A DNA stretch of 64,000 nucleotides from an uncultured Gammaproteobacteria bacterium (GTDB lineage Bacteria > Patescibacteriota > Microgenomatia > Daviesbacterales > UBA10151). The notes under the pieces were generated by a model. That model saw only the letters and a program-made list of their open reading frames with translations, searched no databases and was not told the origin of the DNA. Location: contig CAZKCV010000004.1 of assembly GCA_964551605.1 (NCBI GenBank), positions 7,331 to 71,330 of the forward strand, read 5' to 3'. Positions 8,339-60,297 of this stretch are shown here, piece after piece (the stretch's first letter is position 1; every line of letters starts with the position of its first letter). The position numbers and the translations under genes are program-made.

Positions 8339-10246
8339 CTACATTCTATTAGGTGCCTCAATACATAGTAGGTTTAGACCTTTTTTGATAACTTGAGCAG
8401 CAGCCCTGGTTAGTCGGAGGCGAGTATTTCTTATATTTAAATCCGGTTCATTGAATACGCTGACTTGTTTATAAAAATCGCTGAATAAACCAGCGGTATG
8501 GTAAATATGATCCGCGATCACCTCCGGACTGTTTTTTGCTCCGGCTAACGCAACTATTTCGGGAAACTTACTTATTTGTTTAATCAATAGAAATTCTGAT
8601 TGGTCAGTTGTTTTAACGGGTATATCTGGCGCTAGTTTTATTGCTTCTTCTTCAGCGCGTCTTAGTAGTGCTGCCATTCTGGCGTGGGCATATTGGATAT
8701 AAGGAGCACTGTATCCGGTAAAAGATAAAGCTTTATCCCAGTCAAAACTGATTGATCTCTCTCTGTTTTGTCCAAGATCAAAAAAAGCCACCGCCCCAAC
8801 TCCTACTTGTTTTGCTATGATTTCTTTTTCCTCGGGAGGGAGGTTTTTATTAATCTCATTGATTTTTTGTCTGGCCCTATCAATAGCTTCATTTAGTACA
8901 TCCTCCAAAAATATCACTCTGCCGGCCCTGGTGGACATTTTGCCTTCCGGCAGCTTAATCATCCCAAAATGAAGATGTTCAAGATGCGGTCTTTTGCCGT
9001 CGGTCATTTTATCGAAAGTGGCAAAAACTTGCTGAAAGTAATCTTGTTGATCTTCGCCAACTACATAAAGGATGCGGTCCGGTTGAAACCAGGCGCACCG
9101 GGCAACCAGTGTAGCTAAATCACGGGTAGAATAGAGGCTTGTTCCGTCAGCCTTTTGAATGACTAAATTCTTAAGGTTCCTTTCCGATAAATCGACTATG
9201 GCAGCTCCTGTTTCATCGATAGTAGCAATACCCCGGTCTTTCGTATATTGCAAGACAGGAGGCAACATGCTGAAATAAAATGATTCGCCCAGCATGTATT
9301 CATACTTCGTTCCGAGCAAATCATAAACTTTCTGGAATTCGGTTAAACTTTGTTCAGTAGCCCACTTTAGTAGTTTTAATGCCTCTGTGTCACCTGCTTC
9401 TAGTCTTTGGAACCATTTTCTTCCTTCTCTCTCCAGAGGGGTTTCTACCTCGGCGTTAGGATCGCGCAATCTTGCTCTTTCTGCCGCTCTCTCTTTTTCA
9501 ACCTCATCATGTATACGGACGTACAGTTTGTATAAGCCTCTTACAGGGTCGGTATTATCGCGCAGTTCTTCGTAATCCTGACTCCAGAGTTCGTAAGCCC
9601 TTGTCAGCATGCCGAATTGGGTACCCCAATCTCCCAAGTGGTTATCACGGATAACGGTATAACCATTAGCACGATGTATCCGCGCAAGCGATTCCCCAAT
9701 GATAGTTGATCTGAGATGGCCAACACTCATATATTTGGCTACATTTGGAGAAGAGCAGTCAATAATAATTGTTTTACCGCCACCTGTTTTTTGCTCTCCA
9801 TACCGATCTTGATAGGTTTCAATTTCCGTAAGGACTTGGGAAGTAAACACCCCTGGATCAAGTTGAAAATTAAGGTATCCGCCTTCAGCATTGGCTTGTT
9901 TGATTGCTTGAGGGTGGGGTTCTTGATTAAAACCTGTAGCCAACTCTTGAGCAATTTGTGCTGGACTTTTTCTTAGAGTTTTTGCCATTCCGTGACAGAC
10001 TATAGTCAAGTCAGCTTGGATCCTGGAAGGTGGTTCGATTACTTGTATGCTTGTTTCTGTTAAAGCATGATTAAGACCTGTTAAATGAGTTTCTAATTCT
10101 TTCTGTAATTTTGCCCAGACATATTCGTTGTTTTCAGGTATTGTTGTCAGATTTGGTTCGACAACAGGAATCATGCTTTTTGGAAGGGGGGGGACAGGAA
10201 TTCCCAGATAGTGTAAATCAGATTCAGGATTTCCCTGTGTTTTCAT
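8339..10246 (-). CDS. argS: Arginine--tRNA ligase
   Basis: Class I HIGH-like SPNVAKYMSVGHLRS, a DALR anticodon-binding C-terminus and an Arg_tRNA_synt N-domain. The ORF track extends to 10279; the internal ATG at 10246-10244 gives a 4-nt overlap with the upstream gene, so the exact start is uncertain. Confidence 0.85.
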   Translation of the reverse strand: MKTQGNPESDLHYLGIPVPPLPKSMIPVVEPNLTTIPENNEYVWAKLQKELETHLTGLNHALTETSIQVIEPPSRIQADLTIVCHGMAKTLRKSPAQIAQELATGFNQEPHPQAIKQANAEGGYLNFQLDPGVFTSQVLTEIETYQDRYGEQKTGGGKTIIIDCSSPNVAKYMSVGHLRSTIIGESLARIHRANGYTVIRDNHLGDWGTQFGMLTRAYELWSQDYEELRDNTDPVRGLYKLYVRIHDEVEKERAAERARLRDPNAEVETPLEREGRKWFQRLEAGDTEALKLLKWATEQSLTEFQKVYDLLGTKYEYMLGESFYFSMLPPVLQYTKDRGIATIDETGAAIVDLSERNLKNLVIQKADGTSLYSTRDLATLVARCAWFQPDRILYVVGEDQQDYFQQVFATFDKMTDGKRPHLEHLHFGMIKLPEGKMSTRAGRVIFLEDVLNEAIDRARQKINEINKNLPPEEKEIIAKQVGVGAVAFFDLGQNRERSISFDWDKALSFTGYSAPYIQYAHARMAALLRRAEEEAIKLAPDIPVKTTDQSEFLLIKQISKFPEIVALAGAKNSPEVIADHIYHTAGLFSDFYKQVSVFNEPDLNIRNTRLRLTRAAAQVIKKGLNLLCIEAPNRM

Positions 10247-17030: not shown

Positions 17031-17062
17031 CGTAGAATTTTTGCGGGAAATGTGCAAGAATA

Positions 17063-17130
17063 GGGGAAAGGGTGAAGGGTCAAGGGTGAAGTATTTATTT
17101 ACTTTTCCCTTTACGCTTTCCCCTTAACCC
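17063..17130. repeat. G-rich heptad repeat pair (family A): GGGGAAAGGGTGAAGGGTCAAGGGTGAAG, then a C-rich complement of the same heptad family (not an exact reverse complement)
   Basis: Four G3 tracts with 3-4-nt loops (a G-quadruplex-type motif) followed 12 nt later by the C-rich complement; lies between carB and the Fic gene. Confidence 0.5.
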
Positions 17131-17137
17131 TAACTTT

Positions 17138-18214
17138 ATGTTTATCCCCAAATACTCTATCACCAATAAAATTCTCAAAGATATCGGTACAGTTGAAGCA
17201 GCCCGGGAAGTGATTATGAATGCGCCTCTGGTACCGGCCTGGGAGGCCAAATTCCGCAAAGAGGCTATGGAGCGGACTGTCCATCACGGTACCCACCTGG
17301 AGGGTAATCCTCTATCACCCGAAGAAGTCAAGGATGTCTTGGAAGGGGAAGAAATAATTGCCCGGGACCGGGATGTCCAGGAGATTATCAATTACAGAAA
17401 TGTCTTAAAATTCATTGACGGCATTCACAGTCAGATTGGCTCTTCCGGCAGTTACAGCTTTACCATTGAAACTATACTGGAGATGCACAGGTTAACTACT
17501 GACAAAATTTTAGCGCCGGAATCTTCCGGCCAATTTAGAATTAGGCAGGTAGTGATCAAGAATACCAAAACCGGCCAGATTTCCTATACTCCGCCGCCGG
17601 CAGTGGAAGTGCCGTATTTGGTGGAAGATTTGGTCAATTGGATCAATTCCGATGAAGGCAGACAGGTCCATCCAATCATCAAGGCCGGGATTATCCATTA
17701 TGAACTGGCTAGGATCCATCCTTTTGTAGACGGTAACGGCCGGGTGGCGAGAGCCGTGGCTACCTTGATTTTGTTTTTAGACGGTTATGACATCCGGAAG
17801 TTTTTCTCTTTTGAAGAATACTTTGATGAAAACCCGATGCAGTATTACTTAACACTACAAGCCGTATCAAACCAGCTCGTTCTGGATACTCATGAGCGTG
17901 ATTTAACACCGTGGCTGGAATACTTTACGGAAGGGGTAGCTATTGAGCTAAACCGGGTGAAGGAAAAAGTACAGCGTATTTCGGTTGATGCCAGGATCAA
18001 GGATAAATTAGGCAAGCAACTGATGTTAAATGAGCGGCAAATGTTGATTATGGAATATATTCATCGGCACAAAGGCTTGTCTAATAAAGAGTTCCGTAAG
18101 ATTTTTCCGGATCATTCTGATGATACGGTTCTTAGAGAACTAAAATTCCTCCGCCAAAAAGGCCTGGTTAAAAAATCCGGCGGCACCAAAAAAGCGGTGT
18201 ATGTCTTAAAGTAA
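17138..18214 (+). CDS. Fic family protein (adenylyltransferase-type) with a C-terminal wHTH
   Basis: HPFVDGNGRVAR matches the Fic motif HPFx[DE]GNGR. Confidence 0.8.
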   Translation: MFIPKYSITNKILKDIGTVEAAREVIMNAPLVPAWEAKFRKEAMERTVHHGTHLEGNPLSPEEVKDVLEGEEIIARDRDVQEIINYRNVLKFIDGIHSQIGSSGSYSFTIETILEMHRLTTDKILAPESSGQFRIRQVVIKNTKTGQISYTPPPAVEVPYLVEDLVNWINSDEGRQVHPIIKAGIIHYELARIHPFVDGNGRVARAVATLILFLDGYDIRKFFSFEEYFDENPMQYYLTLQAVSNQLVLDTHERDLTPWLEYFTEGVAIELNRVKEKVQRISVDARIKDKLGKQLMLNERQMLIMEYIHRHKGLSNKEFRKIFPDHSDDTVLRELKFLRQKGLVKKSGGTKKAVYVLK

Positions 18215-20107: not shown

Positions 20108-21886
20108 ATGTTATTTTCTAAACTTGCACAGTATTTTGAAAAGTTGGAACAAACTTCCTCCCGTTTGGCTTTAATTGATATCTTGGCAGAATTGTTTGCA
20201 GAGGTGAATTTCAATGAGATTGGGCATGTGGCTTATTTAATTCAAGGCCGGGTAGCCCCGTTTTTTGAGCCCTTAGAAATAGGCATGAGCGAGAAGCTGG
20301 TAGCACACTCTATTGCCCGGGCTTATGAAGCGGAAAGAGCAGAAGTCTTAAAAGAGTACGGTAAAGTTGGGGATCTGGGGATAGTGGCTGAACGTCATTC
20401 TGGTAAGCGAAGCGCATCCAGAATCGATTCTGGACAAGTCCTTCGATCCCGAGGTCCTCAGGACCAAGGGGCCAGAATGACAGTTAATGAAGTTTTTGAA
20501 ACCTTAAGAGGGATAGCTAAGACAAGCGGTGAGGGCACAGTAGAAAAAAAGGTCTCTGCTTTAGCCGGGCTGCTTAAAAAGATGGATGATTTATCTGCCA
20601 AACACTTAGTCAGGATTCCTTTAGGGGTTTCCAGGTTAGGGGTAGGGGATCCGACTATTTTAGATGCTTTTGCCAAATTAAAACTGGGAGACAAAAGTAA
20701 AAGGAAGAGACTGGAAGGAGCATATAACCGGACTTCCGATCTAGGTTTAATCGGAGAAACTTTATGGAAAGGGGGGCTTCCCGGGGTAGAAAAACTAAAT
20801 GTGACAGTAGGCAGGCCAATCAGATCCCAGCTGGCAGAGCGGCTGCCGACTGCTGAAAAAGTGATTGAAAAGCTGGGAATGGTAAATTCTCAAAGGAAAT
20901 TGGATGGTTTCCGGGTTCAAGTGCACAAAGATGGGGACAGTGTCAGGCTATTTTCCCGGAATCTGGAAGAAACGACTCCGATGTTTCCGGAAATTGTGGA
21001 AGGGACCAAAAAACAAATTAAAGCCAAAACCGCCATTTTGGATTGCGAGGCAATTGGTTTTAACCCGGCTTCTGAGGAGTTTCTGCCTTTCCAGGAGACC
21101 ACCCAGCGGCGGCGAAAATACGGCATTGCAGAAATGGCAATAAAAATCCCTCTGAAGGCTTTTTGTTTTGATATTTTGTATAAGGATGGTAAATCTCTGA
21201 TTGAGTTGGAGCTTAAAGAAAGGTTGAAAATACTGGAGCAAACCATTAAGGCAGGGGATGTGTTGATGGTAGAAAAGGGGGAAATGGTAAGTGATGTCAA
21301 AAGATTACAAATCCTGCTTGATGATTCTATTTCCAAAGGGTTAGAGGGTTTGGTGGTTAAGCGGCCGGATTCAAAATATGAAGCCGGAGCCAGAAATTTT
21401 AATTGGGTAAAACTAAAAAGACATTCGGCAGGGGAGCTTAAAGATACGATTGATTGCGTGATTTTGGGATATATTTTCGGCCGGGGGAAGAGGGCGGAGT
21501 TTGGAGCAGGGTCTCTCTTGGTGGGAATTTATGACAGCGTGAAAGATGAGTTTGTGACAGTATCCAAGATTGGTACCGGTTTAACTGATGAGGAATGGAG
21601 GGAAATTCACAAGCGGGCGGATAAAATAAAGGTGGATCACAAACCGGCCAGGGTTAATTCAATTTTAAATCCCAGTGTTTGGATTAAGCCGGAGATTGTG
21701 ATTGAAGTTCTGGCAGACGAGATTACCCGGTCGCCAGTGCATACGGCCGGAAAAGAGGCTTCAGAGCCCGGCTATGCCCTCAGATTCCCCAGATTGGTTA
21801 AGTTCAGGGAAGCTGATAAGCAGGCAGAAGATGCTACGACTGTGAAAGAACTGGTCGAAATGTATAAGCTGCAGTATAAGAAATAA
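20108..21886 (+). CDS. lig: ATP-dependent DNA ligase (archaeal/eukaryotic type)
   Basis: KLDGFR adenylation motif I, EGLVVK motif and a DSKYEAG..W.KLK motif; 592 aa. Contains the in-frame palindromic insert GKRSASRIDSG. Confidence 0.8.
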   Translation: MLFSKLAQYFEKLEQTSSRLALIDILAELFAEVNFNEIGHVAYLIQGRVAPFFEPLEIGMSEKLVAHSIARAYEAERAEVLKEYGKVGDLGIVAERHSGKRSASRIDSGQVLRSRGPQDQGARMTVNEVFETLRGIAKTSGEGTVEKKVSALAGLLKKMDDLSAKHLVRIPLGVSRLGVGDPTILDAFAKLKLGDKSKRKRLEGAYNRTSDLGLIGETLWKGGLPGVEKLNVTVGRPIRSQLAERLPTAEKVIEKLGMVNSQRKLDGFRVQVHKDGDSVRLFSRNLEETTPMFPEIVEGTKKQIKAKTAILDCEAIGFNPASEEFLPFQETTQRRRKYGIAEMAIKIPLKAFCFDILYKDGKSLIELELKERLKILEQTIKAGDVLMVEKGEMVSDVKRLQILLDDSISKGLEGLVVKRPDSKYEAGARNFNWVKLKRHSAGELKDTIDCVILGYIFGRGKRAEFGAGSLLVGIYDSVKDEFVTVSKIGTGLTDEEWREIHKRADKIKVDHKPARVNSILNPSVWIKPEIVIEVLADEITRSPVHTAGKEASEPGYALRFPRLVKFREADKQAEDATTVKELVEMYKLQYKK

Positions 21887-22032
21887 AGCGGCTCGTCTGG
21901 CCGCAAAAAATCGCTCGCACGGTAGAGACTTGCTCGCTTGTGAGAATTTTGTGGATAGCTTAATACAGAATCATTAAGCCTGTCAGCACAAAATCCTCAA
22001 CATTTTTTGGCTGGCCTAAGACTTCGCCGCTT
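21886..22032 (+). ncRNA. Conserved ~147-nt structured intergenic element, copy 1 (candidate cis-regulatory or small RNA)
   Basis: Three nested helices: aagCggc/gccGctt, caaaaaat/attttttg and attttgtg/cacaaaat. Copy 2 has a compensatory change in the outer helix. Confidence 0.35.
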
Positions 22033-22057
22033 TTAGAGAATATGGTAGAATGCAGGC

Positions 22058-23389
22058 ATGGGCTATGTAGCTGATTTGCATATCCACTCCAGGTACTCCC
22101 GGGCCTGCTCACCGCAATTAAATGTGCCTAATCTGGTGGAATGGGGGAAACTTAAAGGGATTGATGTTTTGGGGACAGGGGACTGCTTGCACCCTCTTTG
22201 GTTTACCGAGCTAAAAAGCCAATTAAAAGAAAATGAGACAGGATTTTTAAGTTACGATAAAGACCCTGCAGTTAAATTTGTTTTGACAGTGGAAGTGGCC
22301 TCGATTTATTCGCATAAAGGGGCAGTCCGCAGGATCCATAATGTGATTATGCTGTCTTCGTTTGAATCAGTGGAGAAGTTACAAAAGGTCTTATTGGCCA
22401 GGCGGGCCAATCTTTCCTCTGACGGCCGGCCGATTGTAGGGATTCCCTCTAAAGAATTGCTCAGGATGTGCCTGGAAATAGATAAAAATGTGATCTTTAT
22501 GCCGGCCCATGCCTGGACGCCCTGGTTTGGCATTTTTGGTTCCCAATCAGGCTATGACAGCCTGCAGGATTGCTTTGAAGATTTAACAGAATATATTTAT
22601 GGTGTTGAAACCGGATTAAGCTCTGACCCGGCCATGAATTGGCGGATTAAGGAATTGGATAACCGCTCAATTATCTCTTGCTCTGATGCCCATTCTTTGC
22701 CTAATTTAGGCAGGGAGGCAACGGTTTTTGGGGGAAGTTTGGAAGATGGGTACGAAAGTTTATGGAAAGCTATTTCAAACAAGATTGCCACGTCGCCTTC
22801 GGCTCCTCGCAATGACGGAGTAGTGGGCACAATTGAGTTTTATCCGGAAGAGGGTAAATATCACTACACCGGCCACCGCAGTTGTAATGTGAAGTATTCG
22901 CCGGAAGATACAAAGGCTAAGGGAACTAAATGTCCGGTTTGCGGCAGGGGATTAACAGTGGGAGTAATGGAAAGAGTAGAAGAGATCGCTTCGCGATCGA
23001 GTGCAGAGTTAAGAGTTAAGAATGTGGAAGGAATGATAAAGAGCGACGAATTTTCTGACAGAGCAGGGTACAAAATGTTAGTGCCGCTTTTGCAGGTGAT
23101 TGCAGAAGCTTTGGGGACTGCCCCGACAACCCAAAAGGTTTTAACTGAATATAAAAAGTTAACAACTGCATTAGGCAGTGAAATTAAGATTTTAACTAAA
23201 GTTGATATTGGAGAGATTGCCAAAGTTTCCGGTTCAAGGGTGGCAGAAGGGGTAGATAAAGTGAGAAAGGGGGATTTGGTGATTGATCCTGGCTATGACG
23301 GGGTGTACGGGGTAGTAAAGATTTGGGATCATGGGAAGGAAACTGTCAAAGAGGCAGAGGAGGTTCCCCAGTTGGGGTTGTTTGATTAG
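22058..23389 (+). CDS. PHP-domain protein of the endonuclease Q-like (TIGR00375-like) family with a C-terminal Zn ribbon
   Basis: N-terminus ADLHIHSRYS..GTGD (PHP metal-binding) and C..CPVCGRG; 443 aa. Confidence 0.5.
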   Translation: MGYVADLHIHSRYSRACSPQLNVPNLVEWGKLKGIDVLGTGDCLHPLWFTELKSQLKENETGFLSYDKDPAVKFVLTVEVASIYSHKGAVRRIHNVIMLSSFESVEKLQKVLLARRANLSSDGRPIVGIPSKELLRMCLEIDKNVIFMPAHAWTPWFGIFGSQSGYDSLQDCFEDLTEYIYGVETGLSSDPAMNWRIKELDNRSIISCSDAHSLPNLGREATVFGGSLEDGYESLWKAISNKIATSPSAPRNDGVVGTIEFYPEEGKYHYTGHRSCNVKYSPEDTKAKGTKCPVCGRGLTVGVMERVEEIASRSSAELRVKNVEGMIKSDEFSDRAGYKMLVPLLQVIAEALGTAPTTQKVLTEYKKLTTALGSEIKILTKVDIGEIAKVSGSRVAEGVDKVRKGDLVIDPGYDGVYGVVKIWDHGKETVKEAEEVPQLGLFD

Positions 23390-23393
23390 TTTA

Positions 23394-23539
23394 AGTGGCT
23401 CGTCACAGTACAAAAAATCGCTCGCACGGTTGGGACTTGCTCTCTTGTGAGTATTTTGTGAATAGCAGTTGACTTTTATCATTAGGATATTCAGCACAAA
23501 ATCCTCAACATTTTTTGTTACTTTGTGACTTCGCCACTT
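23394..23539 (+). ncRNA. Conserved ~146-nt structured intergenic element, copy 2
   Basis: About 80% identical to copy 1. The outer helix aagTggc/gccActt covaries with copy 1; the inner helices are identical. Confidence 0.35.
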
Positions 23540-23552
23540 CTGAATCAATAGT

Positions 23553-24188
23553 ATGAAGATTTTTAGGGATCGTATTGCAGCCGGCGGATTGTTGGCCAAT
23601 AGACTAAAAGATATAAAAGCTGATTTAGTTCTGGGTATTCCCAGGGGTGGGGTAGTGGTGGCAGCGGCAGTGGCTAAAGAATTGAATCTACCTTTGGATA
23701 TTGTAGTGACCAGGAAAATCGGTGCCCCCGGCCAGGAAGAGCTGGCTTTGGGGGCAGTGGATCGGGATGGGGTGGTAGTGTGGGAGGAGAGGTTATTAGG
23801 AGAATTAGGGATAAAGATTGAGGATTTAAGAGAAAAGGTGGAAATAGAGCTGGCAGAGATAAAAAGAAGAGAGGAATTGTACCGGGGTAAGCGGGGAAAT
23901 CTGGAGGTTCTGGGGAAAACAGTGATTCTGGTAGATGACGGGATAGCCACCGGGGCCACTGCTTTAGCTGCCATTAACTTCTTAAGAAGGCATGGGGTCA
24001 GGAAGATGGTGGTTGCAGCCCCTGTGGCTAGCCAGGAGGCAGCCGGCAGGATAACCAGGGAATTAGGGGAAGTAGGGGAAATGATGGTTTTGGAAACACC
24101 GGGATATTTCCGGGCAGTAGGGCAATTTTACCATCAATTCGAGGTGGTAACGGATGAAGAGGTGGTACAATTGTTGGATGGAAGATGA
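23553..24188 (+). CDS. Phosphoribosyltransferase (type I PRTase fold)
   Basis: VILVDDGIATGAT PRPP-binding motif; 211 aa. Confidence 0.7.
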   Translation: MKIFRDRIAAGGLLANRLKDIKADLVLGIPRGGVVVAAAVAKELNLPLDIVVTRKIGAPGQEELALGAVDRDGVVVWEERLLGELGIKIEDLREKVEIELAEIKRREELYRGKRGNLEVLGKTVILVDDGIATGATALAAINFLRRHGVRKMVVAAPVASQEAAGRITRELGEVGEMMVLETPGYFRAVGQFYHQFEVVTDEEVVQLLDGR

Positions 24189-24957
24189 TTTCTTAAACAT
24201 AGCAAAGCAGGCAGCTTTAGAAGCCGGGGAAGTAATAAAAAAATATTCCGGCAAGTTAAGTCAGAAGAATATCAAACATGAAGATCCGGTCGATTATGCC
24301 ACTGAAGCAGATCTGGCCGCCGAAAAAGCCATTGTTAAAATCTTGACTGCTAATTTTCCGGACCATAATTTAATAGCCGAGGAAGCAGCCAGGATTGATA
24401 AAGAATCCGACTTTACCTGGTTAATAGATCCGATGGACGGCAGTATTTCTTTTGGTTCCGGCATCCCGTATTTTTCCGTTTCCATTGGTTTGTTGAAAAA
24501 AGGCGAGCCGTTGCTGGGAGTAGTATACAATGTCAGTTTCAACCAGTTGTATTGGGCAAAGAAAGGCGGGGGGGCATACTTAAACGGGAGGATGCTCCGT
24601 GTCAGTCAGAAAAAGACTTTGGCTGAATCAGTCGGAGTATTGGACTTCGGGCATAATGTCAAAAGGCAATATAAATTAGATCTTTATATCAATAAAGTCA
24701 TTACCAAAATTGGCTATATTTATTCTTTCGGGTCAGCAGCAGCTTCTTTAGGTTTAGTAGCAGACGGCACTCTGGATTTGTACCTCAACCATGCCTATCC
24801 TTGGGATTTTGCCGGAGGGCTGATTATTGTCAGGGAGGCCGGAGGGATGGTTACTGACTTTGAAGGTCAGGAGCCGGATTGGACTAAAGAGCGGATGAAT
24901 ATTTTAGCTTCAAACGGGTTGGTGCATGAAGAGATTCTGGGGGCGCTCAGGAAATGA
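24178..24957 (+). CDS. Inositol monophosphatase family protein
   Basis: WLIDPMDGS and WDFAGG motifs; start set at the internal ATG overlapping the PRTase stop. Confidence 0.7.
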   Translation: MEDDFLNIAKQAALEAGEVIKKYSGKLSQKNIKHEDPVDYATEADLAAEKAIVKILTANFPDHNLIAEEAARIDKESDFTWLIDPMDGSISFGSGIPYFSVSIGLLKKGEPLLGVVYNVSFNQLYWAKKGGGAYLNGRMLRVSQKKTLAESVGVLDFGHNVKRQYKLDLYINKVITKIGYIYSFGSAAASLGLVADGTLDLYLNHAYPWDFAGGLIIVREAGGMVTDFEGQEPDWTKERMNILASNGLVHEEILGALRK

Positions 24958-25544
24958 AATTGATAGTCGGGCTGGGAAATCCGGGAGATAAGCGAAGCTT
25001 GCGATCTGGCGATCTTAAATATGCCGGTACCAGGCATAATTTAGGGTTTGCTGTGGTGGACAAGTTAGGGGAAAGGGTTAAGAGGGAAGGGGGAAGCTGG
25101 AGAAATGAAGAAAAATTTAAGTCTGAGATTTTAGACTTTACCCTTAACGCTTCCCGCTTTACCCTTGTTAAGCCACAGACTTATATGAACAATTCCGGCA
25201 TGGCTGTTAAGTTGCTGGCTAATTATTATAAAATCGCACCGGAAGATATCATTATTATTCATGATGAGCTGGATTTGCCTTTAGGAAAAATTAAGGTTAG
25301 GAAGGGTGGGGCAGCGGCCGGACACCATGGAGTGGAATCAATTATTGCGTCTTTGGGAACAGATCAATTTTTAAGAGTGAGATTAGGTATTGGCCCGGCA
25401 GTCGGAATAGTGGAAAAATTTGTCCTGGAACCTTTCGGCTCAAAAGAAAAACCTGCAGTTAAACATCTGATCAAGCAGGCACTAAAAGCTATTGATTTAC
25501 TTTTGGAAAAAGGTTTAGAAAAAGCCCAAAATCAATATAACTGA
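24954..25544 (+). CDS. pth: Peptidyl-tRNA hydrolase
   Basis: LIVGLGNPG..Y..TRHN and HDELDLP motifs. The CDS carries a family-B palindrome (24989-25020) and a family-A G-rich inverted pair (25068-25167) in frame. Confidence 0.85.
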   Translation: MKLIVGLGNPGDKRSLRSGDLKYAGTRHNLGFAVVDKLGERVKREGGSWRNEEKFKSEILDFTLNASRFTLVKPQTYMNNSGMAVKLLANYYKIAPEDIIIIHDELDLPLGKIKVRKGGAAAGHHGVESIIASLGTDQFLRVRLGIGPAVGIVEKFVLEPFGSKEKPAVKHLIKQALKAIDLLLEKGLEKAQNQYN

Positions 25545-25583
25545 TGCTATTGACAGCGGGTTATTTTCTCTCTAGACTGTACA

Positions 25584-42657: not shown

Positions 42658-42664
42658 CTTCGTT

Positions 42665-42698
42665 CACCTCGAAGGAGTCAAAGCCCACCTTCGAGGTG
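42665..42698. repeat. Family-C 34-nt perfect palindromic element cacctcgaagg-agtcaaagccca-ccttcgaggtg (intergenic copy)
   Basis: Exact reverse complement of the copy at 46241-46274, which lies inside the HMG-CoA reductase CDS. Confidence 0.6.
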
Positions 42699-42701
42699 TT
42701 G

Positions 42702-43053: not shown

Positions 43054-43105
43054 TTGTAAGCTGAGCTTGCGATCTAAAGATCTTAAATTGTACATTTGTA
43101 AATTG

Positions 43106-44262: not shown

Positions 44263-45303
44263 TTATATCCTGTACTTATTTATTATGTTCCTGGCTACCA
44301 GTGAATAATCAATCATTTGTTTATTTTGTATTTGATTTTGGACATTTTTGCTGTTTTTCTTTTGGAATTGTTTTAACAGGGGAGTGGTTTCAAAGATAAA
44401 GGAATCAGAGCCGGCACCTGAGCCATAGGAGCACATAAAGATCTTTTGCTTAGGGTTAGCAATATCCAAAGTAGCTGCCAAGCCTATCATGGATGAGGCA
44501 GAATAAGGATTACCTATTTGAGAAACTATAAATCCGGGTTTTAATTGCTCATCTTTAAAGCCTAACCTTTTGGCTGCTTCTTTGGGGAACTTACCATTTG
44601 GCATATGGAAAACAGCAAACTTAAAGTCAGCCGGTTTTAGTTTCGCTTTTTCCAGTAACAGGTTGGAAGCACTAAGAACATGATTAAAGTAAGCCGGATC
44701 TCCGGTGAACCTGCCGCCGTGGGAGGGAAATTTTTCAGTATCCCTTCTCCAAAAGTCCGGAGTATCCGAACTGTAGGAAGTAAAATCTAAGATATTAGCA
44801 AGTGTATCCTTGTTGCCTAATATGAAACTGGCAGCAGCAGAGCCTGCAGTATATTCCAAAACATCAGATGGCTTGGATTGGGCTACATCAGAACCGATGG
44901 CTAAAACATATTTGGTATCTTTGCCAACTAAGCCTGATAATAGCTGCATTCCGGAGGTGCCGGCTTTGCAGGCAAATTCCAAGTCCACAGCCAGTAAATT
45001 CTCCGGCAGGCCTAAAATTCCGGCTACAGTGGTGGCAGTAGGTTTAACTGCATAAGGATGGGATTCTGAGCCTACTGTTATGGCGCCTATTTTACTGAGG
45101 TCAAAGTTAAGTGGCATAGCAGCATTAAGGGTAGCCTCAACTGCTAAAGTGACTGCATCTTCATCAACTGAGGCCACAGCTTTTTCAAAAACCCCTAAAG
45201 CTTTTTCTACTTCATTGACTTCCTTGCCCCAGGCATGAGCGATTTGAGAGGGCTTGATGCGGTATTTTGGAATATAAGTTCCGTATGAAACAATGCCTGT
45301 CAT
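44263..45303 (-). CDS. mvaS: Hydroxymethylglutaryl-CoA synthase
   Basis: N-terminus GIVSYGTYIPKYRI and catalytic Cys region EFACKAGTS; 346 aa. Confidence 0.85.
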   Translation of the reverse strand: MTGIVSYGTYIPKYRIKPSQIAHAWGKEVNEVEKALGVFEKAVASVDEDAVTLAVEATLNAAMPLNFDLSKIGAITVGSESHPYAVKPTATTVAGILGLPENLLAVDLEFACKAGTSGMQLLSGLVGKDTKYVLAIGSDVAQSKPSDVLEYTAGSAAASFILGNKDTLANILDFTSYSSDTPDFWRRDTEKFPSHGGRFTGDPAYFNHVLSASNLLLEKAKLKPADFKFAVFHMPNGKFPKEAAKRLGFKDEQLKPGFIVSQIGNPYSASSMIGLAATLDIANPKQKIFMCSYGSGAGSDSFIFETTPLLKQFQKKNSKNVQNQIQNKQMIDYSLVARNIINKYRI

Positions 45304-46469
45304 TTTTTTCTTCCAAGTTTTTGATGTGCTTTTGCCAAACTGCCTTCTGCTAAGCTGGCAATCAAAGATAGTTCACCGGCCAAGACCGTTGCGCCTAAAA
45401 CTTGAGCATATTCTAACACACCCTTCACATTCATAACCTTCAGAGCTTCCTGCTGGGTAGGAAGGTGTGTCCCGCCGCCGACAGTGCCAACTATTAAAGA
45501 GGGGAGATAGACAGAAAAATAAAGGCTATTGTTTTCCAATACCTCGGCGCTGGTTATTCCTAAACTGGCTTCTGTTACATGTGCTAAATCCTGACCGGTG
45601 GCAGCAAAAACCGCTGCCGCAATATTGGCAAAGTGGCTGTTATAGCCAAGGGAGCCTGACATTATTGAGCCCAGATGGCATTTCCGTTCAGTTACTTCGA
45701 CAACTTTCTCCGGGGTAGTTTTGAGGACATTGGTTACTACCTTTTTAGGTAATATGCATTCTGCCCAGACTTTTTTGCCGCGGCCTAAAATGAAATTTAG
45801 CCAGGAAGGTTTTTTATCTATATCAAAGTTACCTGCTAAAGAAATGCATTTGGCGGAGGTCTTTTCTTCAATGATTTTTACCATTGCTTCAGTGGCAATA
45901 GTGGCCATATTCATTCCCATGGCATCGCCGGTATCAAAATAGAACCTGACAAATAGGTTTCTGCCGACGATTCTATAATCTGCCTTTAATAATTTTAGAT
46001 GGGAAGAAGTGGCTTCAGCCGCCTTGGCCAAAGCTTTGAAGTTTTTTTCAATCCAGATTTTGGTTTTCATGGCTCTGCTTAAGTCTTTAAGTTTAAAAAC
46101 CGGCCCCCGGGTAATACCGACATTCTCTATAAAAACCATTATTCCACCGGATTCCTTGGTGGCTTTGCAGCCCCGGGAAACAGAAGCTACCAGAGCGCCT
46201 TCTGTTGTTGCTAACGGAATAAAATAATTTTTCTCTCTTACACCTCGAAGGTGGGCTTTGACTCCTTCGAGGTGGACTAATAATGGCCCGGCAATACCAA
46301 GGGGGATTTGGGCAGCGCCGATTAAATTTTCAATATTTCGGCCAACTGCAGCCTCTTCCGGAAAGCTGAAATCGCCAATATTATCCAGTTTAATATTTAG
46401 CTTTTTTTCTAGAAACTGCCGCCTTTTTTGTGCAGATGTAAAGCCACGAAGTGAGGTTTGATCTTTCAT
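45300..46469 (-). CDS. mvaA: HMG-CoA reductase
   Basis: ATTEGALVAS, the GTVGGGT region and DAMGMN motifs. Contains the family-C 34-nt palindrome in frame (VKAHLRGV). Confidence 0.85.
   Translation of the reverse strand: MKDQTSLRGFTSAQKRRQFLEKKLNIKLDNIGDFSFPEEAAVGRNIENLIGAAQIPLGIAGPLLVHLEGVKAHLRGVREKNYFIPLATTEGALVASVSRGCKATKESGGIMVFIENVGITRGPVFKLKDLSRAMKTKIWIEKNFKALAKAAEATSSHLKLLKADYRIVGRNLFVRFYFDTGDAMGMNMATIATEAMVKIIEEKTSAKCISLAGNFDIDKKPSWLNFILGRGKKVWAECILPKKVVTNVLKTTPEKVVEVTERKCHLGSIMSGSLGYNSHFANIAAAVFAATGQDLAHVTEASLGITSAEVLENNSLYFSVYLPSLIVGTVGGGTHLPTQQEALKVMNVKGVLEYAQVLGATVLAGELSLIASLAEGSLAKAHQKLGRKK
46241..46274. repeat. Family-C 34-nt palindromic element inside the HMG-CoA reductase CDS
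   Basis: cacctcgaaggtgggctttgactccttcgaggtg, reverse complement of 42665-42698; 11-bp arms with a 12-nt loop. Confidence 0.6.
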
Positions 46470-47858: not shown

Positions 47859-48806
47859 ATGGAATTTGAGGAATTTAGAAAAAGCGTCACTTTGCAGATT
47901 GAAAAGCAGTTAAAGAAGCTACTGAGAGACTGGAGGAGCGAGGTGGAAAAAATTGACACTAAGCTTTTGCCACTGGTAGATAAATTTATCGCCGGTTGTC
48001 AGGGAGGGAAGATGATCAGAGGTATATTGGTGGTGCTGGGGAATGAGATTGCGAGGGGTGGAGATCACCTCGGAGGAGTCATGGCTTCGCAAGCTCAGCC
48101 TGCCACCATCCGAGGAGATCTTGATAGGGAGATTTTTAAAGTTGCAGCGACTTATGAAATAATGCACAGCGCGATTTTGGCTCATGATGATATCATAGAC
48201 CAAAGCCCGGAAAGGCGGGGCCAGTCTTCTTTATTTAAAGCTATTGGCCAGGGTCATTATGGAATATCCCAGGCGATCAGTTTAGGGGACGCCGGTTTTT
48301 TCCTGGCAATGAAGATTATTTCTGGAGCTAATTTTCCCAAAGAAAGAAAAATTCCCGCCCTGAAACTGCTTTCTACAGTAATGTTGGATACAGCTTTGGG
48401 GGAAATATTGGATTTAGAGAAAGTTGATCCGTTGGTTGTGACAAAGCTTAAAACGGCGTACTATACGATCTCCGGGCCGCTGCAGTTGGGAGCAATTTTA
48501 GGGGGGGCCGAATCTCACCTCGGAGGAGTCAAAGCCCACCTAATACGTGCTCAAAGAGAGCAACGAGGTGTAAAACTACTTAACAATTTGGCAAAATTTG
48601 GAGAGGGCTTAGGGATTGCTTTTCAGATCCAGGATGATATTTTGGATTCTGAAGTAGATTTTTGGGGAGGGGCTGATAAGGCTAAAAAGGAAGCGGATAA
48701 GTTTAAAAATAAAGCATTGAAGATATTGCCGGAGATTACCAAAGATCCCCAAATGAGTAAATTGTTGGAACAGTTATCGAAATACTTAATCGAAAGAACA
48801 GAATGA
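47859..48806 (+). CDS. Polyprenyl diphosphate synthase (trans-isoprenyl diphosphate synthase)
   Basis: DDxxD motifs (AHDDIID and QIQDDILD). Carries two degenerate family-C-derived in-frame inserts (48066-48125 and 48514-48567). Confidence 0.8.
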   Translation: MEFEEFRKSVTLQIEKQLKKLLRDWRSEVEKIDTKLLPLVDKFIAGCQGGKMIRGILVVLGNEIARGGDHLGGVMASQAQPATIRGDLDREIFKVAATYEIMHSAILAHDDIIDQSPERRGQSSLFKAIGQGHYGISQAISLGDAGFFLAMKIISGANFPKERKIPALKLLSTVMLDTALGEILDLEKVDPLVVTKLKTAYYTISGPLQLGAILGGAESHLGGVKAHLIRAQREQRGVKLLNNLAKFGEGLGIAFQIQDDILDSEVDFWGGADKAKKEADKFKNKALKILPEITKDPQMSKLLEQLSKYLIERTE

Positions 48807-49493: not shown

Positions 49494-50294
49494 TTACTGA
49501 ACCTCTGACCAACGTTGAAGGGTATCGGCAAATAAATCCCTTAAAATCACCACATATTTCGGCTGGTGGACTATCTTTTCCGCAGCCACTGTATTATCAG
49601 TCAGGCTGCGGCAGAAAACTATTTTACCCGGGCTTAGACTGATTAAACTGCCATAAATAGTTAAAGTGTTGGCTACAGTGGAATTAGTAGTACAAGGATA
49701 ACCGGCAGTATAAATTTTATCTGAAGAAATGATCACCGAATATATTTGAGTCACAGTTTGAGTGATACTAACGTAGCCCTTAACGACAAAGACTATGCCG
49801 GAGCTTGCGTCTCCGAAATTACTGTTAAAGGTTAAATCTCCGTCTACAAAGATAACAGCAGCGGTTTTGGAGGGCCCACCTAGAGGGGAATTAATATCTA
49901 CATTTCCATTAACTAATACAATGTCATAACTGTTTAATAGGGACCTTAAAGTGCCTTGGTTGGCGGTGGCAGTTGATGTTTTAGCGGCTTTAGATTGGGT
50001 GTAATAGAGTGATTTTAGATCTTCATAAGTAGGGATTTTATAGGAGACAAAAGCAGCTTTTAAGTCAATCACGCAATTACCGGTGGTATTGCTGAATTTA
50101 GTAGAAACTGTCGGAGCACTAATTAAGCCGCCGGCCCGGGGATTGGTGGATTGGGTTGGGCAGGCATTTTGGGCATAAACGGTTGGTAGTATAAATAAAG
50201 CTACGACAATCAAATAAGCTGCCAAAATAACTGTACCCTGTAACCTAAGACCTTTAGGTCGCAAGCTTCGCTTATACCCTGTACCCTTTATCAT
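49494..50294 (-). CDS. Secreted/membrane-anchored hypothetical protein
   Basis: N-terminal hydrophobic segment after the family-B-encoded KRSLRPKGLRL; Thr/Ser/Asn-rich body. Confidence 0.4.
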   Translation of the reverse strand: MIKGTGYKRSLRPKGLRLQGTVILAAYLIVVALFILPTVYAQNACPTQSTNPRAGGLISAPTVSTKFSNTTGNCVIDLKAAFVSYKIPTYEDLKSLYYTQSKAAKTSTATANQGTLRSLLNSYDIVLVNGNVDINSPLGGPSKTAAVIFVDGDLTFNSNFGDASSGIVFVVKGYVSITQTVTQIYSVIISSDKIYTAGYPCTTNSTVANTLTIYGSLISLSPGKIVFCRSLTDNTVAAEKIVHQPKYVVILRDLFADTLQRWSEVQ

Positions 50295-57000: not shown

Positions 57001-57165
57001 ATGGTCAAGTTGAATGCAAAGCAATTAAGGAAGGGTAAAGGGGAAAGCGTAAAGGGTGAAGTAAGAAAGAACAACATCTATATTATCCTGGATAATGTTT
57101 TAGATACCTATAATATTGGTTCTATCTTCAGGCTGGCAGATGCAACTTTGAAGATTTTACATTGA
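57001..57165 (+). pseudogene. Duplicated 5' fragment of the TrmH-family methyltransferase gene (48 codons + 6 novel codons)
   Basis: 57001-57143 matches 59764-59906. A 53-bp core is identical; a 42-nt G-rich heptad block differs. Confidence 0.5.
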
Positions 57166-59763: not shown

Positions 59764-60297
59764 ATGGTAAAACTTAATGCAAAGCAATTGAGAAAGGGTA
59801 CAGGGTACAGGGTACAGGGTACAGTTAAGCGCAATGAGATCTATATTGTTTTGGATAATGTTTTAGATACCTATAATATTGGTTCTATCTTCAGGCTGGC
59901 AGATGCGGTGGCAGCCAAAAAGATTTACCTTTGCGGGGGAACAGAGACTCCGCCCAATCACCGGATTAAGAAAGCTTCCATTAATACCACCGAAGTAGTG
60001 GAGTGGGAGTACTTCGAAACAGCCCTGGAAGCAGTTTCAAGGGTAAAGCGTGAAGCGAAAAGGGTAAAGATAATAGCGATAGAACAGAGCCCTAAATCAA
60101 TCCAATATAATACTTTTGAGTATAAATTGCCCATATGTTTGGTGGTAGGGCATGAAAGTAACGGGGTAAGCAGGGAAGTTTTGGAAATTTCTGATGCCAT
60201 TGTTGAAATTCCCATGTTCGGGGTTAATATTTCTTTAAATGTTGTGGTTTCTTTAGGGATAGTATTGTATGAAGTTATTAAGAAGAGTGATAATTAA
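59764..60297 (+). CDS. TrmH/SpoU-family RNA 2'-O-methyltransferase
   Basis: SpoU motifs NIGSIFR...GTE and a C-terminal LNV..S; contains the (GGGTACA)x4 in-frame repeat. Confidence 0.7.
   Translation: MVKLNAKQLRKGTGYRVQGTVKRNEIYIVLDNVLDTYNIGSIFRLADAVAAKKIYLCGGTETPPNHRIKKASINTTEVVEWEYFETALEAVSRVKREAKRVKIIAIEQSPKSIQYNTFEYKLPICLVVGHESNGVSREVLEISDAIVEIPMFGVNISLNVVVSLGIVLYEVIKKSDN
59796..59824. repeat. (GGGTACA)x4 heptamer tandem repeat (family A variant; G4 motif) in frame in the trmH-like CDS
   Basis: Perfect 7-nt repeats. The duplicated fragment at 57033-57061 carries GGGTAAAGGGGAAAGCGTAAAGGGTGAAG at the same place. Confidence 0.6.

Follow-up and report, generated by a model that had tools for sequence, protein, structure and literature searches.

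The spacers at positions 21886-22032 and 23393-23539 of the window, that is, of the whole 64-kb stretch of DNA that was analysed, are members of a lineage-specific family of interspersed palindromic repeats of ~150 nt in Candidatus Daviesbacteria (CPR/Patescibacteria). In addition to fragments, 25 copies were found across Ca. Daviesbacteria genomes and metagenomes, occupying at least 17 distinct loci and measuring 147-160 nt. Regarding their role, we give about an even chance to the reading that they constitute an interspersed repeat of the MITE, ERIC or SPRITE kind, which would act as a co-transcribed RNA hairpin at gene ends and between cistrons.

The genomes of CPR/Patescibacteria are tiny and densely packed, and the ending, processing and insulation of their transcripts are, to our knowledge, almost wholly uncharted. 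The present family indicates that a structured interspersed repeat is found even in a genome of ~1 Mb, and that, as judged from sequence comparisons, purifying selection keeps it at the ends of orthologous genes even between species with saturated synonymous sites. Moreover, it provides a covariance model ready for the annotation of Daviesbacteria genomes, as well as a defined RNA with a candidate protein-binding loop for biochemistry.

Members of the repeat family

Two duplicated spacer elements on the + strand had been proposed in a first-pass annotation of the window, and both were confirmed, flanking the EndoQ-family gene. Their identity, previously put at ~80%, corresponds to a mean column identity of 84% in a MAFFT alignment of the two spacers; the statement that one of them is ~18 nt longer was wrong, both being 147 nt long. 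A 26-mer (CAGCACAAAATCCTCAACATTTTTTG) and a 20-mer (CAAAAAATCGCTCGCACGGT) common to both copies have exactly two occurrences each in the 64-kb window, against 0.00-0.01 in shuffles. A search for copies in relatives, which the same annotation had suggested as a check, recovered more copies, with the helices preserved rather than broken; covariance model R1 scored copy 1 at 163 bits and copy 2 at 166 bits. Besides the main subfamily, divergent copies were also found, and a further model (R2), built from two divergent copies, retrieved no additional members. Copies are dispersed, with a maximum of two per 64 kb, no near-identical paralogous copies occur inside any one genome, and the genes neighbouring the 25 copies share no theme (ATP synthase, purB/purE, EF-P and dCTP deaminases, among others). 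L005, although labelled Gammaproteobacteria, contains Daviesbacteria-like genes and two copies, and was treated as mis-binned; a match of the genome scan in L007 (Planctomycetota) was considered a chance pattern match and left out.

Comparison against Rfam, also proposed earlier, matched no family on the repeats: Rfam 15 at gathering thresholds gave 0 matches over the whole window, and at E<=10 the interval 21800-23650 gave only three chance matches, all inside the EndoQ ORF. No copies were present in the viral contigs searched. Full-text searches of the literature on repeats or structured RNAs of CPR and Daviesbacteria found no description of the present repeat, and we consider the family previously undescribed. 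There is no conserved ORF in any frame, and a small protein encoded by the repeat was ruled out by stops in all six frames and frame shifts between copies. A search for stand-alone basal hairpins returned only an internally deleted remnant (L011 1288-1351) and a second, GC-rich repeat family.

Architecture and covariation of the hairpin

The consensus fold is a long, branched and bulged hairpin, along which P1, the loop GC-UC-G / C-UUC-GC, the covarying helix P1b, an A6/U6 helix, P4, P5 and a variable tip are arranged in this order; the rod also bears one side hairpin and is therefore a three-way junction overall. The three helices named in the first-pass annotation (aagYggc/gccRctt, caaaaaat/attttttg and attttgtg/cacaaaat) all appear both in the MFE structures and in the consensus, and P1 does show the reported C-G to T-A covariation. 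They are part of this branched structure rather than simply nested, as had been described, and P1b, located between P1 and the A6/U6 helix, had been overlooked. The distinction previously drawn from a simple REP-like palindrome was correct, since the element is a single 150-nt branched hairpin with an asymmetric side arm.

Copy 1 (21884-22035, + strand) extends from the ligase stop codon TAA (21884-21886, which shares the first A of P1) through the U-tract plus TA (CTTTTA). The 5' arm of its basal stem (21886-21904) comprises P1 AAGCGGC (21886-21892), the loop TC (21893-21894) and P1b GTCTGGCCGC (21895-21904). It is followed by an A6(T) tract (21905-21911), whose partner (A)T6 lies at 22002-22008, the pairs being A-U in 22-25 of the 25 copies. 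The side arm, borne on the 5' strand only (21912-21938; CGC-TC-GCACGGT-[AGAG]-ACTTGC-TC-GCT), is a hairpin with a variable tetraloop whose closing module is a second GC/UC/GC; pairs of the side-arm region across copies include 34-92 (GC in 22, AU in 2) and 35-91 (CG in 16, UA in 3, other in 5). The 5' strands of P4 (T.GTGAG) and P5 (ATTTTGTG) occupy 21939-21953, a stretch including TGTGAGAAT, and precede a variable apical region of ~33 nt (21954-21986) with a semi-conserved ATTAAG/ATTGAG, which is 47-89% identical between orthologues. The invariant 3' strand CACAAAATCCTCAACATTTTTT (21987-22008) completes P5 and P4 and continues into the U6 tract, a run located immediately 3' of the P4/P5 hairpin. 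Finally, the 3' arm of the basal stem (22009-22035) consists of GGCTGGCCTAAGAC, the loop TTC and P1 GCCGCTT (22026-22032), followed by TTA.

Copy 2 (23390-23541, + strand) is found 3 nt past the EndoQ stop codon TAG (23387-23389), with P1 formed by AAGTGGC (23393-23399) and GCCACTT (23533-23539). Its P1b, composed of the 5' arm GTCACAGTAC (23402-23411) and the partner GTTACTTTGTGAC (23517-23529), is wholly unlike the copy 1 sequence (GTCTGGCCGC/GGCTGGCCTAAGAC), with the pairing retained. Each copy had been reported to end ~15-25 nt before the next start codon; the distances are 25 nt for copy 1 and 13 nt for copy 2, which is followed by the PRTase ATG at 23553.

Compensatory changes affect all helices of the 23 additional copies and strongly bear out the selection on structure that had been postulated from the initial pair. 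Helix cells are paired in 96.5-96.8% of cases versus 38-47% with slid partners (about 44%), 21-23 pairs display double changes, and none of 500 shuffles attained the observed values. Among the copies, at least 10 different sequence versions of P1b were counted, each of them complementary, and the inner helices of divergent copies are compensated as well (GAG/CUC to GAA/UUC, GAU/AUC or GGAG/CUUC). More than 60 positions are invariant and concentrated in junctions and loops, the peripheral stems being variable and covarying. The ends of the repeat, (T)AAG-YR-GCTCGTC and GACTTCGC-YR-CTT(TTA), pair as P1, whose two variable positions covary rather than being fixed, which is unusual for terminal repeats recognised by a transposase; fixed boxes in the arms are only short (GCTCGTC / GACTTCGC), and the remaining arm sequence varies with compensation. 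P1 holds 4-5 G-C pairs, and the tail past it has 4-7 U within 8 nt in 16/25 copies and at least 3 U in 22/25. The module GC-UC-G/C-U(U)C-GC is present at the base and in the side arm of every copy, at the L024 tip and in the second, unrelated, GC-rich repeat family.

As to the strand, 29 G-U cells versus 5 A-C cells favour the sense strand, with the limitation that strand-biased C-to-T mutation could inflate the G-U excess, GC skew being positive throughout the window. Single-sequence folding on the + strand surpassed that of shuffled sequences, with z = -4.4 for copy 1 and -2.4 for copy 2, and the corresponding folding energies of the antisense strand are slightly lower. Other candidate features were tried and rejected, namely an alternative long hairpin CUCGCA/UGUGAG replacing P4 (the GAG changes in L025, L005b and L022a are compensated in the 3' strand, not in CUCGCA), an antisense-strand kink-turn (the loop is 3x2, not 5x2, and the G-U counts favour the sense strand), and a CRP-like TGTGA-N6-TCACA site (the two TGTG blocks are direct repeats, not inverted).

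Gene-end position, turnover and selection

Every one of the 25 copies has the orientation of its upstream gene. The distance from the stop codon of that gene is usually about 10 nt or less and reaches ~45 nt; in other cases the gene reads into the repeat, and some copies supply the stop codon themselves. In the pth-dsbA spacer, the repeat sits between the stop codon and a conserved TTGACA-N17-TAGACT promoter. Copy 1 is similarly placed with respect to TGGTAGAAT (22043-22051, + strand), a putative extended -10 promoter of the EndoQ-family gene that lies outside the repeat and 6 nt before the ATG (22058), its pattern TRTGNTARAAT being conserved in the window and L020-L026 (8 genomes); because this predicted promoter is downstream of copy 1, the copy would be outside the 5' UTR of the EndoQ gene. 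Corresponding spacers in other genomes carry other long hairpins, which provides a natural system in which differing hairpin classes swap at one gene boundary. Several copies are found inside evident operons with no space for a downstream promoter (atpB-atpF, purB-purE and EndoQ-PRTase, the latter with 13 nt to the ATG), where a strong terminator would be harmful; therefore, termination would be at best partial. A terminator consensus scan of 21700-23700 did not call the repeat on the + strand; the U-tail has only a few residues, some of which pair with A residues farther upstream.

Orthologous copies are 92-99% identical in the core, whereas identity at four-fold degenerate sites in the genes on either side is only 23-50%, synonymous sites there being saturated. 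The outer stems are 56-66% identical at the dCTP-deaminase locus, with pairing kept, and 89-94% in two closer pairs. These sequence comparisons indicate that the core of orthologous copies is under purifying selection, which would argue for a sequence-specific partner. The repeat may also be a small RNA or a protein-binding site, as the first-pass annotation had suggested. The repeat also turns over: both window copies are absent from the closest relative, which has one copy in a spacer that is empty in the window, and such presence/absence polymorphism between close relatives is accompanied by truncated and nested copies.

In most copies, TA is found 0-2 nt away from either end. One filled site, AAGAAA[TA]AAGCGGC..GCCGCTTT[TA]GAGAA, corresponds to the empty site AAGAAATAGATAT of L020; another, AAT[TA]AAGTGTCGC..CTTTC[TA]AATATTGACA of L022, has its empty counterpart AATTAAGGGATTGACA in L026. 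Both comparisons fit a duplication of TA, a dinucleotide that is self-complementary, common in AT-rich spacers and indistinguishable from two extra inverted-repeat pairs. As expected of a MITE, the repeat is <300 bp, non-coding, dispersed in many copies and bounded by terminal inverted repeats; the scanned window ORFs and called genes of L020-L026, about 330 kb, contained no autonomous relative encoding a transposase with the same ends, and no transposase or other mobilising gene.

According to the gene-end hairpin reading, the repeat would be transcribed as the 3' UTR or intercistronic spacer of the upstream gene and would fold into a long bulged rod with a side hairpin and a U-rich tail at the end. 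Such a module may serve as a partial intrinsic terminator and/or as a stabiliser, that is, a barrier to 3'-exonucleases, separating the expression of neighbouring cistrons, and the invariant core together with the recurring pyrimidine loop would be the probable docking site for a putative factor. Spread may have proceeded by a TA-directed, MITE-like cut-or-copy mechanism, individual copies being later retained by the host. A plain hairpin function leaves the invariant core unexplained.

Known elements and alternative readings

Among described elements, SPRITEs are likewise interspersed repeats of <200 bp with tens of copies per genome near the 3' ends of CDSs, in which a predicted long stem is followed by a U-rich tract; they also have A-run/T-run termini, an unresolved TSD, no known mobilising enzyme and a proposed co-option as terminators (2011, PMC3049150). 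However, the two are unrelated in sequence, and SPRITEs consist of a plain duplex of 18 bp, have a long U-rich tail and favour one strand only mildly (63% leading strand) (PMC3049150). The Daviesbacteria repeat, in contrast, forms a three-way junction of 150 nt that covaries heavily around an invariant core, and 25/25 copies are in sense orientation. ERIC elements occur in both orientations and are not known to carry a side arm or U-tail. They resemble the present family in being imperfect palindromes of similar size (~127 bp, also known as IRU) of transcribed intergenic regions that are much better conserved across species than the surrounding DNA, and they act in RNA in an orientation-dependent manner, as with the RNase E site exposed at Yersinia gene 3' ends (PMC10969869). 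Nevertheless, no sequence similarity exists, as blastn at a word size of 11 matched copy 1 to none of the complete E. coli genomes (5,426). Correia elements of Neisseria (CREE/NEMIS) are 100-200 bp MITEs with TA at both ends that are co-transcribed as a long hairpin, which is cleaved by RNase III, and can carry promoters (PMC10969869). They differ in their conserved 26-bp terminal inverted repeats, recognised by sequence, in occurring in both orientations and in being often located upstream of genes. Intrinsic terminators share with the repeat a G-C-closed stem followed by a U-run past the stop codon, and its A-tract/U-tract pairing recalls bidirectional terminators; however, the Daviesbacteria hairpin has about ten times the usual size, is AU-rich and branches, unrelated loci and species share its conserved sequence, its U-tail is only 3-6 nt long and some copies lie within operons.

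A more specific reading, which we consider improbable but the strongest of those that follow, is that the invariant three-way-junction core and the recurring loop 5'-GC-UC-G / 5'-C-U(U)C-GC serve for recognition, or as the active site, in an RNA system specific to Daviesbacteria, which could be a dedicated RNA-binding protein or nuclease punctuating polycistronic transcripts, or a new class of self-cleaving ribozyme. If so, the host would be maintaining the repeats as functional RNAs, and they would not represent mobile DNA in decay.

Somewhat less probable again is a functional structured RNA in general, whether as 3'-UTR-derived small RNAs, RNP scaffolds or a new self-cleaving ribozyme that would cut polycistronic transcripts between cistrons, its active core being formed by the junction and the invariant strands. 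The combination of >60 invariant junction and loop positions with covarying variable stems is the usual signature of ribozymes and protein-binding RNAs, and the purifying selection on the core and the recurrence of the pyrimidine-loop module point in the same direction; with no Rfam match, it would be a new class. However, copies start within or directly after coding sequence with no promoter upstream, their distribution is narrow (one candidate class-level lineage), degenerate, truncated and nested copies are repeat-like, and the sequence shows no sign of any known catalytic core.

On a par with the latter we place a single-stranded DNA hairpin of the REPIN, IS200/IS605-PATE or attC type, which would form on the template of the lagging strand and whose structure would be read by a tyrosine or HUH recombinase, any effect in RNA being incidental. 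REP/REPIN elements are 20-40 nt palindromic units, single or in inverted doublets, associated with a RAYT (Y1 transposase) gene, and attC sites carry R''(RYYYAAC) and R'(GTTRRRY) boxes at their ends in arrays that adjoin intI. Like them, the repeat is a long imperfect hairpin, strand-specific and with unpaired bases on one arm, the asymmetric 3'-arm bulges being reminiscent of attC extrahelical bases; recognition of structure would account for covarying stems and conserved loop and bulge positions, and presence/absence polymorphism suits a mobile element. Given the positive GC skew across the window, the folding strand corresponds to the leading-strand sequence and is thus the lagging-strand template, so that orientation alone is insufficient against this model. 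Nevertheless, the repeat greatly exceeds a REP doublet in length and bears an asymmetric side arm of 27 nt, R boxes are missing in 25/25 copies on both strands, the copies are dispersed rather than arrayed, and no integrase or Y1 (RAYT) transposase was found among the called genes of L020-L026 or the scanned window ORFs; an attC identity was rejected for want of the R boxes. Furthermore, TA at both flanks suggests a duplication of the DDE type, a kind not produced by HUH elements, and old orthologous copies with an intact core are not predicted by selfish mobilisation alone.

Clearly less likely is a terminator-promoter insulator, in which the full hairpin would stop upstream transcripts and an internal extended -10 element (TTGTGAGAAT/TTGTGAGTAT, P4 5' strand) would start a fresh transcript that runs into the downstream gene, lacks the 5' arm and is therefore unable to re-form the terminator. 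The stretch TGTGAGAAT (21939-21953) does resemble an extended -10 box, the EndoQ promoter TGGTAGAAT and the local consensus TRTGNTARAAT, and is invariant in the main subfamily, although its reading as a promoter is speculative. This arrangement would account for the strict orientation, the placement in operons without other promoters and the sequence conservation, and Correia elements offer a precedent for promoter-bearing MITEs (PMC10969869). Against it, the hexamer starts with G instead of T, a -35 box is missing, a two-hexamer promoter scan was negative in both copies, the box is not preserved in L024 and L022a, and pairing with the invariant 3' strand explains the invariance equally well.

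Lastly, the 5'-UTR cis-regulator that the first-pass annotation had proposed for structured copies 25 and 13 nt upstream of start codons, here a riboswitch or leader specific to the EndoQ-like and PRTase genes, is highly improbable, since the genes downstream of the 25 copies are unrelated, the repeat is anchored to the upstream stop codon instead of the following start codon, the dsbA promoter and the putative EndoQ promoter are located downstream of it, and the EndoQ/PRTase orthologues of L020, L023, L024, L025 and L026 lack it, as does the closest relative at both window positions; in genome annotation, spacers bearing this repeat should not be taken as gene-specific regulators.

Two copies of a hairpin repeat and their conserved fold

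Our results establish that two spacers of the window harbor members of a new lineage-specific interspersed repeat of Candidatus Daviesbacteria, which is located at gene ends and whose sense strand has a conserved secondary structure of the RNA type. Both copies lie on the + strand and span 147 nt: the first base of copy 1 (21886-22032) is also the final A of the TAA stop codon (21884-21886) that ends an ATP-dependent DNA ligase gene (20108-21886), and copy 2 (23393-23539) begins 3 nt past the stop of ORF 22058-23389, an endonuclease Q family gene (EndoQ, PF27218), and precedes a phosphoribosyltransferase (PRTase) gene starting at 23553. The aligned spacers display 84% column identity, and their invariant 26-nt and 20-nt blocks occur exactly twice each in the window, against a chance expectation of none; no third copy was found there, even by two covariance-model searches. 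Both elements, three helices in each of them and a C-G to T-A swap had been reported in the first-pass annotation, and all were found on the window sequence as described, except that one copy is not 18 nt longer than the other. A further helix, located between P1 and A6/U6, is the most telling one and had been overlooked; here the two copies are wholly different in sequence and both complementary (GTCTGGCCGC/GGCTGGCCTAAGAC versus GTCACAGTAC/GTTACTTTGTGAC).

The fold obtained with RNAalifold on a MAFFT alignment is one long imperfect hairpin, and covariation of the outer stem was already visible in this alignment. In the alignment of 25 copies, whose pairing figures are those of an alignment fitted to the covariance model, standard pairs occupied 96.5-96.8% of helix cells, versus 38-47% with 3' partners slid by 1-3 columns; both sides had changed in 21-23 of 40-42 pairs, and the observed values were equaled by none of 500 shuffles. 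Compensation can also be read straight from the sequences, in the inner helices (GAG/CUC to GAA/UUC, GAU/AUC or GGAG/CUUC, and A6/U6 to AAAGCA/UGCUUU). Helix cells contain 29 G-U versus 5 A-C combinations; therefore, it is the + strand that folds, which is the sense strand of the neighboring genes.

From base to tip, the repeat comprises the basal helix P1, (A)AG-YR-GC; an invariant 2x3 loop, GC-UC-GUC / GAC-UUC-GC; P1b, for which 10 or more different complementary versions exist; the A6/U6 helix; a side arm of 27 nt that is confined to the 5' strand and forms a hairpin of its own, closed by a GC/UC-UC/GC module (pair 34-92: GC in 22 copies, AU in 2); P4, UGUGAG/CUCAACA; P5, AUUUUGUG/CACAAAAU; and a variable tip of ~30 nt. 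This layout makes the fold a three-way junction, in which the A6/U6 helix has P4 stacked on it. The loop module, GC-UC-G / C-U(U)C-GC, is found at the base of the repeat, again in its side arm and, for the L024 copy, in the tip, and also in a second, GC-rich repeat family of the same genomes (TGCTCGGGGTCCTG..GCTCG ... CTTCGC..CACCCCTCGCA; L014 1543-1641, L022 9871-9968 and possibly L021 11296-11445), which nests with the AU-rich repeat, forming a shell around the copy at L010 1333-1485.

Family membership, conservation and turnover

Neither element matched any family of Rfam 15, whether gathering thresholds or a cut-off of E<=10 were applied, and no published description was found in the full-text literature on CPR/Daviesbacteria repeats or structured RNAs. 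Pattern scans of species-representative genomes and JGI metagenomes yielded 17 more distinct copies, whose sources were without exception Candidatus Daviesbacteria or groundwater contigs lacking a label; one further match was dismissed as chance, and one contig, L005 (CAZYPW010000004.1), was labelled 'uncultured Gammaproteobacteria'. This contig carries two copies of the repeat and genes with 71-88% identity to Daviesbacteria orthologues, and is probably mis-binned or mislabelled. The covariance model R1, built from 19 copies, recovered further members: divergent copies in L005 (1542-1701), L022 (12068-12229), L024 (3709-3869) and L025 (5519-5678), a full copy in L020 (13443-13601), a copy in L022 (13600-13704) from which the apical region and both helices P4 and P5 are missing, and a remnant with an internal deletion in L011 (1288-1351). 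Zero copies were found in the viral contigs and E. coli genomes searched.

Orthologous copies were recognized in the dcd-dcd spacer (L001/L005/L019), between the Jag and ligase genes (L002/L017), between purB and purE (L006/L015), and after carB (L024/L025). At the first three loci, where flanking genes were compared, their four-fold degenerate sites were saturated (23-50% identity), with 92-99% identity in the element core and 47-89% in the tip; outer stems displayed 56-66% identity at the dcd locus, with pairing retained, and were 89-94% identical in the other two pairs, which are closer. After carB, where only the element was compared, the core was 86% identical. No copies within a genome were near-identical in their variable parts (maximum 0.83). 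No recent burst has thus taken place, and purifying selection acts on the core at individual old copies.

The syntenic block carA/B-Fic-ligase-EndoQ-PRTase-IMPase-pth-dsbA was also retrieved from seven other genomes. L020, the closest relative, whose EndoQ is 85% identical, lacks the repeat at both window sites and carries one copy between pth and dsbA, a spacer that is empty in the window (25545-25583). In L022, copies follow the PRTase gene and pth; L024 and L025 have one each, after carB, and L021, L023 and L026 none in the block. Remnants of the repeat's 5' part persist between ligase and EndoQ in L021 and L022, and one of its 3' part after EndoQ in L014; partial copies adjoin full ones in L008, L009, L024 and L025. 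Filled and empty sites (AAGAAA[TA]AAGCGGC...GCCGCTTT[TA]GAGAA in the window versus AAGAAATAGATAT in L020; AAT[TA]AAGTGTCGC...CTTTC[TA]AATATTGACA in L022 versus AATTAAGGGATTGACA in L026) would fit insertion at TA, often that of a stop codon, with duplication, TA being self-complementary and the duplication hence ambiguous. The copy upstream of EndoQ in L014 (57-215) is chimeric, its 5' P1b arm resembling copy 1 (TGGAC/TGGCC) and its tip and 3' arm being nearly identical to copy 2, so that P1b now pairs poorly, which suggests an exchange between the two EndoQ-flanking copies through recombination or gene conversion.

Gene context and possible function

All 25 copies share the orientation of the upstream gene, whose end usually lies within ~10 nt (maximum ~45 nt). 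In four copies (L001 ~2800-2844, L005 ~2380-2423, L019 ~9155-9198, L009 299-343) an upstream dCTP-deaminase-like or MGMT-like ORF runs ~45 nt into the repeat, which provides the stop codon, the TAG of the side-arm loop, and a basic C-terminal tail (..SSSARKKSLAR; ending in KKSLAR or similar). The downstream gene usually begins no more than 40 nt away and, for at least 24 of the 25 copies, is encoded on the same strand. Promoters recognizable by conservation lie downstream of the element, such as that of dsbA (TTGACA-N17-TAGACT) and the extended -10 box of EndoQ (TRTGNTARAAT; window 22043-22051), 6-9 nt before the ATG in eight genomes, which places copy 1 outside the EndoQ 5' UTR. The EndoQ start region (window 22043-22060 and equivalents in L020-L026) has no Shine-Dalgarno sequence; together with the box position, this suggests a leaderless or near-leaderless mRNA.

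As the most economical mechanism, we infer that the element is co-transcribed and acts as a 3'-end or intercistronic hairpin. Its two nested hairpin-plus-U-run units, P4/P5 followed by U6 and the whole rod followed by CUUUUUA, could lead to partial termination and/or protection from 3' exonucleases, and the invariant core and pyrimidine loops might constitute the docking site of a putative factor; copies inside operons and the short U-tail weaken this proposal. The closest analogues are the SPRITE, ERIC and Correia elements, small structured repeats acting on co-transcribed mRNAs (PMC3049150, PMC10969869); in contrast to these, the Daviesbacteria repeat is strictly sense-oriented (25/25 copies), its fold is branched, its stems covary instead of being fixed, and its core is under purifying selection.

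A mechanism acting on single-stranded DNA would be compatible with the orientation, as GC skew is positive throughout the window and the folding strand is thus also the lagging-strand template; however, the copies lack attC motifs, and the window ORFs scanned and the called genes of L020-L026 revealed no recombinase; we consider this mechanism improbable. As minority options, the element would be a ribozyme or RNP scaffold of a new kind, or a cassette of terminator and promoter with TGTGAGAAT as extended -10 box. The gene-specific leader or riboswitch is ruled out, since the neighboring genes share no functional theme: two dCTP-deaminase-like genes, Jag and an O-antigen-ligase-like protein, purB/purE, atpC, atpB/atpF, EF-P/galU, LemA/HtpX, Ni-superoxide dismutase and its peptidase, TrpRS, tpiA, a NUDIX protein, carB, pth/dsbA, a PRTase/IMPase pair, DNA ligase and EndoQ.

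Other repeats and insertions

In genomes lacking the element, the same spacers often carry other long hairpins (heptad-periodic, AT-rich or of the GC-rich family). The heptad-periodic hairpins, long intergenic structures of ~7-nt units (5 paired and 2 unpaired nt, e.g., AGGGTAAAGGGGAAAGCGTAAAGGGTGAAG), are found at window 17062-17139, 57001-57143, 59764-59906 and 60038-60071 and at L020 11345-11437, fold much better than shuffled sequences (z -4.2 to -4.4), and in other genomes fill the gene-end spacers used by the 150-nt repeat. The ligase-EndoQ spacer, home of copy 1, has a '23S rRNA intervening-sequence protein' gene (PF05635) inserted in three relatives (L020 9078-9599, L023 9451-9996, L024 9399-9929), with TTATAA-type repeats ahead of the gene (ATATAACGGTTATAATAGTTATAAAAATTATAAAA).

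A palindromic mini-repeat of ~30 nt (TAAGCGAAGCTTGCGATCTnnnGATCTTA) lies in frame (24987-25016) inside the peptidyl-tRNA hydrolase gene pth (24954-25544), adding nine residues (DKRSLRSGD) missing in three orthologues; related copies (43057-43088, 50246-50275) are intergenic or at gene ends. Finally, a 35-41-nt palindrome (CACCTCGAAGGAGTCAAAGCCCACCTTCGAGGTG) has one spacer copy (42659-42699) and three in frame inside enzymes of the mevalonate/isoprenoid cluster, namely HMG-CoA reductase (46240-46280; ORF 45300-46469) and polyprenyl synthetase (48515-48541 and 48065-48091; ORF 47859-48806). The inserts that it encodes are HL(E/G)GVKAHL-like and recall the palindromic elements of Rickettsia.
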